Shown here: one piece after another, positions 20,318 through 20,336 of the stretch
How positions within the stretch are numbered: position 1 is the first letter of the stretch
Layout: each line of letters begins with the position of its first letter
From: a virus
Lineage: Duplodnaviria > Heunggongvirae > Uroviricota > Caudoviricetes
Virus record (IMG/VR): IMGVR_UViG_3300045988_150638
Reading direction: 5' to 3' (one strand)
DNA: 64,000 nt
Notes under the pieces: generated by a model
What the model was told of the DNA's origin: nothing
Seen by the model: the letters and a program-made list of their open reading frames with translations, nothing else
Databases searched by the model: none
Program-made: the position numbers and the translations under genes

Positions 20318-20336
20318 AATGACTAGCGGTAGAATC
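20318..20336 (+). promoter_or_regulatory. candidate late promoter: AATGACT-N5-TAGAAT
   Basis: Motif shared with sites at 33461, 39732, 50816 and 59424, each 25-50 nt upstream of a plus-strand structural operon. Confidence 0.4.

Follow-up and report, generated by a model that had tools for sequence, protein, structure and literature searches.

Late promoters of the P1 type upstream of structural operons in a P1-like phage-plasmid, with candidate additions upstream of upfC and ppfA

Five structural operons on the plus strand of a 64,000-nucleotide stretch of viral DNA (IMG/VR record IMGVR_UViG_3300045988_150638, analyzed at its full length and called the window here) are preceded by a similar short element. 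The question raised by the first of them, at 20318, is whether this element marks activator-dependent late promoters, as the first-pass annotation proposed by analogy with phage P1. BLAST identified the window as a P1-like phage-plasmid in reverse orientation, 96–99% identical to P1 over aligned blocks, and the 4 kb around the first site has 99% identity with phage P1, SJ46, P7, and other punaviruses. In the whole-window alignment, positions 4–61422 correspond to P1 (AF234172) from 93515 down to 36337, with 96–99% identity over most of this range and an insert and a diverged stretch as exceptions. The insert (~6.5 kb, 7706–14277) has no P1 counterpart save one 117-nt match inside it. Its matches are to a variable accessory region (ead/Ea22-like, DUF551, and DUF4752 proteins) found in many P1-like plasmids of E. 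coli and Salmonella, with coverage of at most 71% per record. A stretch of ~700 bp (45162–45856), for which BLAST found no match in P1, stands in place of ~1.8 kb of P1 (51585–53412, the rlfA-rlfB region).

All five sites (20318, 33461, 39732, 50816, and 59424) are present where they had been placed. The element first described as common to them, TGACT-N5-TA(G/A)AAT, is exact at three (20320, 39734, and 50818, the only matches on either strand of the 64 kb) and occurs as a variant at the other two, GTTACT-N5-TACAAT at 59424 and GTAACC-N5-TAAAAT at 33461. The -10 hexamers are all of the form TANNNT (in the order of the sites TAGAAT, TAAAAT, TAAAAT, TAGAAT, and TACAAT). As proposed, every downstream gene begins a plus-strand operon for virion proteins. 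The gap between the -10 and the start codon is 29, 32, 51, 31, and 30 nt, respectively, so that the proposed distance of 25–50 nt fits four sites and is exceeded at 39732. The upstream part had been read as an activator recognition box, which stands for the element; the TGACT itself is only the right part of a 9-bp inverted repeat, AAGTNACTT, of which (A/G)TGACT covers positions 3–8. This repeat is centered near -22, 4 bp upstream of the TANNNT hexamer, and usually has RAC before it; the consensus extracted from P1 late promoters is (R)AC-AAGTNACTT-N4-TANNNT. The palindrome arms have no mismatch at 39731 and 59423, one at 33460, and two at 20317 and 50815, and the last two boxes are identical to annotated P1 boxes.

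The P1 reference used for promoters was the feature table of GenBank AF234172, in which 11 late promoters are annotated (LPmat, LPpro, LPlyz, LPdar, LPs, LPsit, LP23, LP26, LPpmgL, LPhot, and LPpac), each with a 9-bp "-22 region," a spacer that is regularly 4 bp, and a -10; the literature also counts 11. Ten regularly spaced members of this set were used to build a 22-nt weight matrix, with 200 dinucleotide shuffles of the window as control. Seven of the 11 fall within the range covered by the window, and all seven are present with zero or one mismatch. Four of the five sites are orthologues of LP26, LP23, LPsit, and LPs, in agreement with the proposal of Lpa-type promoters as in P1. Three further annotated promoters lie on the minus strand and were absent from the first-pass list.

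20317–20335, plus strand: LP26; box AAATGACTA (20317–20325), spacer GCGG, -10 TAGAAT (20330–20335); score 26.5 bits; identical to P1 "late promoter LP26," 78485–78503 (minus); operon 26-25-7-24-6-5 (baseplate and tail).
39731–39749, plus strand: LP23; box AAGTGACTT with perfect palindrome arms, spacer TCAA, -10 TAAAAT; score 26.8; identical to P1 "predicted late promoter LP23," 58825–58843 (minus), which the P1 record gives as predicted only; operon 23 (major capsid)-22-21-pmgG-bplB-pmgF.
50815–50833, plus strand: LPsit; box AAATGACTA, spacer CTCG, -10 TAGAAT; score 25.1; identical to P1 "late promoter LPsit," 46608–46626 (minus); operon pmgC-tub-pmgB-sit-pmgA-bplA-16.
59423–59441, plus strand: LPs (Ps); box AAGTTACTT, spacer CTCT, -10 TACAAT; score 26.8; one spacer mismatch to P1 "late promoter LPs," 38318–38336 (minus); operon R-S-U (tail-fiber genes).
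3026–3044, minus strand: LPpac; ATGTGACTT, spacer TCGT, -10 TACCCT; score 24.3; identical to P1 "late promoter LPpac," 90475–90493 (plus); serves pacA-pacB.
6345–6368, minus strand: LPhot; AAGTTACTT, atypical 9-nt spacer, -10 AATAAT; identical to P1 "late promoter LPhot," 86521–86544 (plus).
20307–20325, minus strand: LPpmgL; divergent, uses the palindromic box of LP26; one mismatch to P1 78495–78513 (plus).

LPpmgL is the weakest of the 11 annotated promoters and fits the matrix poorly (leave-one-out score -5.75). Its -10 (20307–20312) is ATTATT here versus AATATT in P1, and relatives differ at these positions. Outside the window, the LPpro box, itself a palindrome, also has an element on its opposite strand (CAC TAGTCACTT GTTA AGGATT, 10.2 bits; L007 241–262, minus strand, equivalent to P1 17241–17262) that points at darB. 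Although darB follows late kinetics by RNA-seq (4.8 to 11.7), the only promoter annotated for it is a predicted sigma-70 promoter. The LPpro box may be a second bidirectional box like that of LP26 and LPpmgL. At the end of gene 16, a G+C-rich hairpin (CACCCCG...CGGGGTG, 59398–59420) runs into the GAC before the LPs box and looks like a terminator-like insulator abutting this tail-fiber late promoter.

Intergenic DNA is AT-rich and TAnAAT hexamers are common there, so the shared motif could in principle be a coincidence of -10-like hexamers. A search with the full element yielded six matrix hits of at least 20 bits in the window, a score reached in none of the 200 shuffles, and the sites at 20318, 39732, 50816, and 59424 score 25–27 bits. 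The three exact matches to the shorter motif compare with 0.07 expected per shuffle (0 of 100 shuffles reached three), and a simpler rule, at most one mismatch over the eight arm positions followed by N4 and TANNNT, finds six sites versus 0.8 expected. Nor is the motif as frequent in coding DNA: all three exact matches are non-coding, as are five of the six matrix hits of at least 20 bits; the non-coding share of the P1 region homologous to the window is 9.4% (P = 4e-5). Coincidence is also at odds with conservation, since the LP26 box and the preceding CAAC are invariant in 79 IMG/VR relatives while the 4-bp spacer varies. The shuffle controls refute coincidence, to which we assign a negligible probability. 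An invariant box with a drifting spacer is the footprint that would be expected of a protein-binding site. In the 75%-identical Cronobacter phage JK004, the motif is kept upstream of orthologous operons, including those matching LP23, LPs, LP26, LPpac, LPpro, LPlyz, and LPsit; the LPsit orthologue has a half-degenerate box, ACATGACAA, similar to the boxes found at the upfC site (33461).

The activator of these promoters in P1 is also encoded in the window, together with its own promoter.

3076–3528, minus strand: lpa (gene 10), late promoter activator, 150 aa; the ORF translation is 100% identical to P1 Lpa and matches Pfam PF25716 (BPP1_LPA, E = 3e-57).
3574–3615, minus strand: Plpa, a sigma-70 promoter, with the operator Olpa; -35 TTGCTA (3601–3596), -10 TATTAT (3579–3574), overlapping the C1 operator Olpa (3615–3599).

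Plpa/Olpa differs from the P1 annotation (89904–89945) by one substitution, located between the hexamers, and is the early, repressor-controlled switch that supplies Lpa. The part of PMC1891329 that cites Hansen et al. 2003 describes Lpa as a sequence-specific DNA-binding activator that acts through host SspA, and SspA as a bridge to RNA polymerase that does not itself bind late-promoter DNA. P1 late genes require SspA (PMC8201110), and lpa is essential in P1 according to the literature. Under the mechanism that these data suggest, Lpa (gp10) would be made early from C1-repressed Plpa and would recognize the inverted repeat. The -22 repeat AAGTNACTT takes the place of a -35 element, with the sigma-70 -10 hexamer TANNNT retained. 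With Lpa and the host RNA-polymerase-associated SspA in place, the E. coli sigma-70 holoenzyme would then be able to initiate, late in infection, at the operons for head, tail, baseplate, tail fibers, packaging, and lysis. Because the promoters and Lpa are identical to those of P1, the Lpa/SspA dependence and late timing reported for P1 can safely be expected to hold in its relative represented by the window.

Could the five sites instead be ordinary sigma-70 promoters that need no activator, with TGACT as a displaced -35-like element? Their -10 hexamers match TATAAT at five of six positions, TGAC resembles part of TTGACA, and in the P1 record both LP23 and LPmat overlap with predicted sigma-70 promoters. 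However, TGACT lies 5 bp from the -10 and not 16–18 bp. The absence of a conventional -35, already part of the first-pass annotation, was borne out at all five sites: the best TTGACA match at 16–18 bp spacing is at most 3/6, and a search for a TGn extended -10 found none at any of them. Expression timing is also against it. Kinetics were taken from published P1vir RNA-seq (PMC8201110, Table S1) and refer to P1vir, not to the element in the window. For the 35 genes that follow annotated late promoters, the log fold change averages 4.28 at 10 min, with a gain of 6.77 by 30 min, whereas 31 early genes are at 7.93 at 10 min and gain 3.61; genes downstream of the sites are near-silent when sigma-70/C1-controlled operons are already high. 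The essentiality of lpa argues in the same direction, and the literature assigns P1 late promoters to Lpa and SspA, so that published genetics contradict activator-free sigma-70 promoters, which we regard as very unlikely. A search of the available papers turned up no transcription-start map of P1. As to the four annotated sites, the sequence offers no argument against late promoters, and we conclude that the shared motif very probably represents P1-type late promoters, with 33461 as a candidate only.

The site at 33461, upstream of upfC, shares this architecture, with a box that is weaker, and is absent from the 11 annotated P1 late promoters. No promoter is annotated at its homologue in P1 (65096–65114, minus strand) or in P7.

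33460–33478, plus strand: unannotated candidate late promoter; box AAGTAACCT (33460–33468), spacer AAGT, -10 TAAAAT (33473–33478); the upfC start codon, GTG, is at 33511.

The operon behind it, upfC-upfB-ppfA-mlp, encodes late functions because UpfC and UpfB are baseplate proteins by P1 cryo-EM, a T4 gp5.4-like spike tip and a "tripod" (PMC12810830; PMC9024508), and ppfA and mlp encode predicted spanins (PMC9025707). UpfC carries a PAAR motif.

We consider it roughly an even bet that this site is a weak Lpa-dependent promoter. The competing explanation, which applies to this site alone and which we give only slightly less than an even chance, is that it is not Lpa-dependent and is either a chance resemblance or a weak sigma-70 promoter whose TAAAAT happens to follow a box-like sequence; in that case, upfC-upfB would owe their late expression to a different start or to gene dosage following replication. 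The matrix score of 13.65 bits is consistent with chance, as 0.72 such hits are expected per shuffled window and the site is not significant genome-wide. So is its standing outside the 11 annotated promoters. At position 8, the box has C instead of the T shared by all 11 annotated promoters, and its central A is found in none of the 11; it is only weakly an inverted repeat, its one arm mismatch falling at position 8. In 85 close relatives, few columns of the intergenic region vary as much as box positions 3–4. The box variants in this set are AAATAACCT (44), AAACAACCT (23), AAGTAACCT (10, window included), AAATAACTT (4), AATAAACCT (2), AATTAACCT (1), and AAATAATCT (P1). Scores of the homologous sites span 3.2 to 16.9 bits (9.6 in P1 itself) and include variants of 3–8 bits, whereas the LP26 box never varies. 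A sigma-70-like pair, TTAAAA-17-AATAAT (9/12), overlaps the site.

Other observations favor an Lpa-dependent promoter at upfC. The five genes of the upfC operon are low at 10 min (mean log fold change 4.78) and rise by 6.16, as known late operons do. These kinetics differ from those of early genes (Mann-Whitney P = 6e-5) and not from those of late genes (P = 0.11), while the divergent neighboring operon, uhr-hrdC-dmt, is early (8.6–9.4 at 10 min). In the supplement of a 2025 bioRxiv P1vir RNA-seq study, upfC values are NA or 0 and therefore uninformative. A matrix scan found no better late-type motif near upfC on the same strand. The TAAAAT hexamer and the flanking CCACAA and AACCT are conserved within an otherwise very variable intergenic region. 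In diverged lineages (the JK004 group, Pantoea L011, and Klebsiella L015), the best matrix hit is a box-like element with a -10-like hexamer 27–32 nt upstream of the upfC start. UpfC homologues below ~70% identity were left aside, as they occur in other gene contexts, with another gene or unrelated DNA upstream.

JK004, upstream of upfC: GAC GAATAACAA GGGG TAGCAT.
L109, upstream of upfC: CAC TAATGACAA GGCT TACAAT (14.8 bits).
L107, upstream of upfC: CAC TAATGACAA GACC TACAAT.
Pantoea L011, upstream of upfC: GAC AAATGACTG GATC CATACT.
Klebsiella L015, upstream of upfC: CAA ATGTAACTA TTAA TAAACT.

Three other arrangements were considered at this locus and set aside. The sigma-70-like pair is at chance level (0.5 per region), and its -10 varies among relatives. 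A divergent minus-strand promoter from the same box was rejected on its hexamer, which at the required spacing is TCTACA and not TANNNT. Read-through from upstream late operons as a source of late upfC RNA appears unlikely; the nearest same-strand upstream genes, upl-plp, are 4.4 kb off, across the antisense of dmt-hrdC-uhr, and expressed earlier, and the end of the LP26 operon is 8.6 kb from upfC.

A second unannotated candidate lies within the same operon, in the 40-nt gap between upfB and ppfA, and likewise has no P1 annotation. Its targets would be ppfA-mlp, the predicted spanin genes, together with upfA. All relatives compared have a box and a -10 at this position and differ freely in the spacer; the conservation holds in ~80 close relatives, and the element also occurs in the gap in the diverged relatives JK004, L105–L109, and Pantoea L011. 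Judged by these comparisons, the ppfA candidate is better conserved than the upfC site.

34594–34612 (from 34591 with AAC), plus strand: candidate upstream of ppfA; AAC, box AAAGGACTT, spacer CATT, -10 GATAAT; score 12.6.
L105, upfB-ppfA gap: GAG AAGTGACTT TCCA GAGAAT (20.1 bits; canonical box).
L107, upfB-ppfA gap: GAC ATATGACTT GTCA GAAAAT (17.8 bits; canonical box).
JK004, upfB-ppfA gap: GAC AAATGACCT GGCG GAAAAT (14.4 bits).

The matrix also identified a match inside gene 7, which encodes the connector "stopper" protein.

22022–22040 (from 22019 with AAC), plus strand: match internal to gene 7; AAC AAGTGACTG GTGA TAACCT; 21.07 bits.

None of 200 shuffles reaches this score. The match begins 46 nt after the start codon, is identical in P1 (76780–76801, minus strand), and is unannotated; the same codons in JK004 read CAC AAATGACCG GTGA TACGCT. 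Because it lies in coding sequence, where protein constraint may be at work, this conservation is uninformative. In wild-type P1vir RNA-seq at 30 min, genes 7 and 24 are ~1 log unit above genes 26 and 25, a difference that is not seen in the dksA host. The match could represent a late promoter within the gene, or it could simply follow from the sequence coding for QQVTGDNL. On the antisense strand, a match at 39793–39811 (minus strand; AAGTTACTC AATT TACTCT, one arm mismatch plus TANNNT) spans the start codon of gene 23 and is directed back at parS; it is probably a chance match.

Whether the P1 family has more late promoters than the canonical 11 (at upfC and ppfA, and possibly inside gene 7) is in our assessment evenly balanced. 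If it does, the sequence recognized by Lpa would be broader than the annotated set indicates, as the upfC and ppfA boxes are both degenerate: a central A would be tolerated, one half-site may suffice, and a -10 of the form GAnAAT would be possible.

The late promoters of the window resemble those of P1 in genome type, architecture, and downstream operons, and Lpa is identical; they differ in that 33461 and 34594 are outside the set of 11 and that the 33461 box is weaker (central A, C at position 8). Phage T4 late promoters use the gp55 sigma factor, the gp33 co-activator, and the sliding clamp, and have an extended TATAAATA element and no upstream protein-binding repeat. They are similar in serving late virion genes from a -10-type element without a -35 and in needing phage-encoded factors. 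However, gp55 replaces sigma-70 in T4, whereas P1 keeps sigma-70 and adds an activator at -22 and host SspA. The late promoters of P2, P4, and 186 depend on the zinc-finger activators Ogr, Delta, and B, and those of Mu on activator C. As in P1, these are temperate phages that switch on morphogenetic operons through a small phage-encoded DNA-binding activator; the inverted repeat that it recognizes precedes a poor sigma-70 promoter. The repeat of P2 and its relatives, TGT-N12-ACA, has its center near -55, and their activator contacts the alpha subunit of RNA polymerase; the binding region of Mu C is around -35 to -50. The P1 box, in contrast, is much closer (-22) and adjoins the -10, and SspA is required as co-activator.

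The late-promoter motif itself is already known: its description dates from around 1990, and the P1 reference genome carries it as an annotation. The reading first made from the raw sequence was sound. Only the upfC and ppfA sites are possible additions to the known set. The upfC-upfB-ppfA-mlp-upfA operon is expressed late and has no late promoter in the reference annotation, a gap that the two candidates would fill. They would also supply natural "weak box" variants for defining what Lpa reads.
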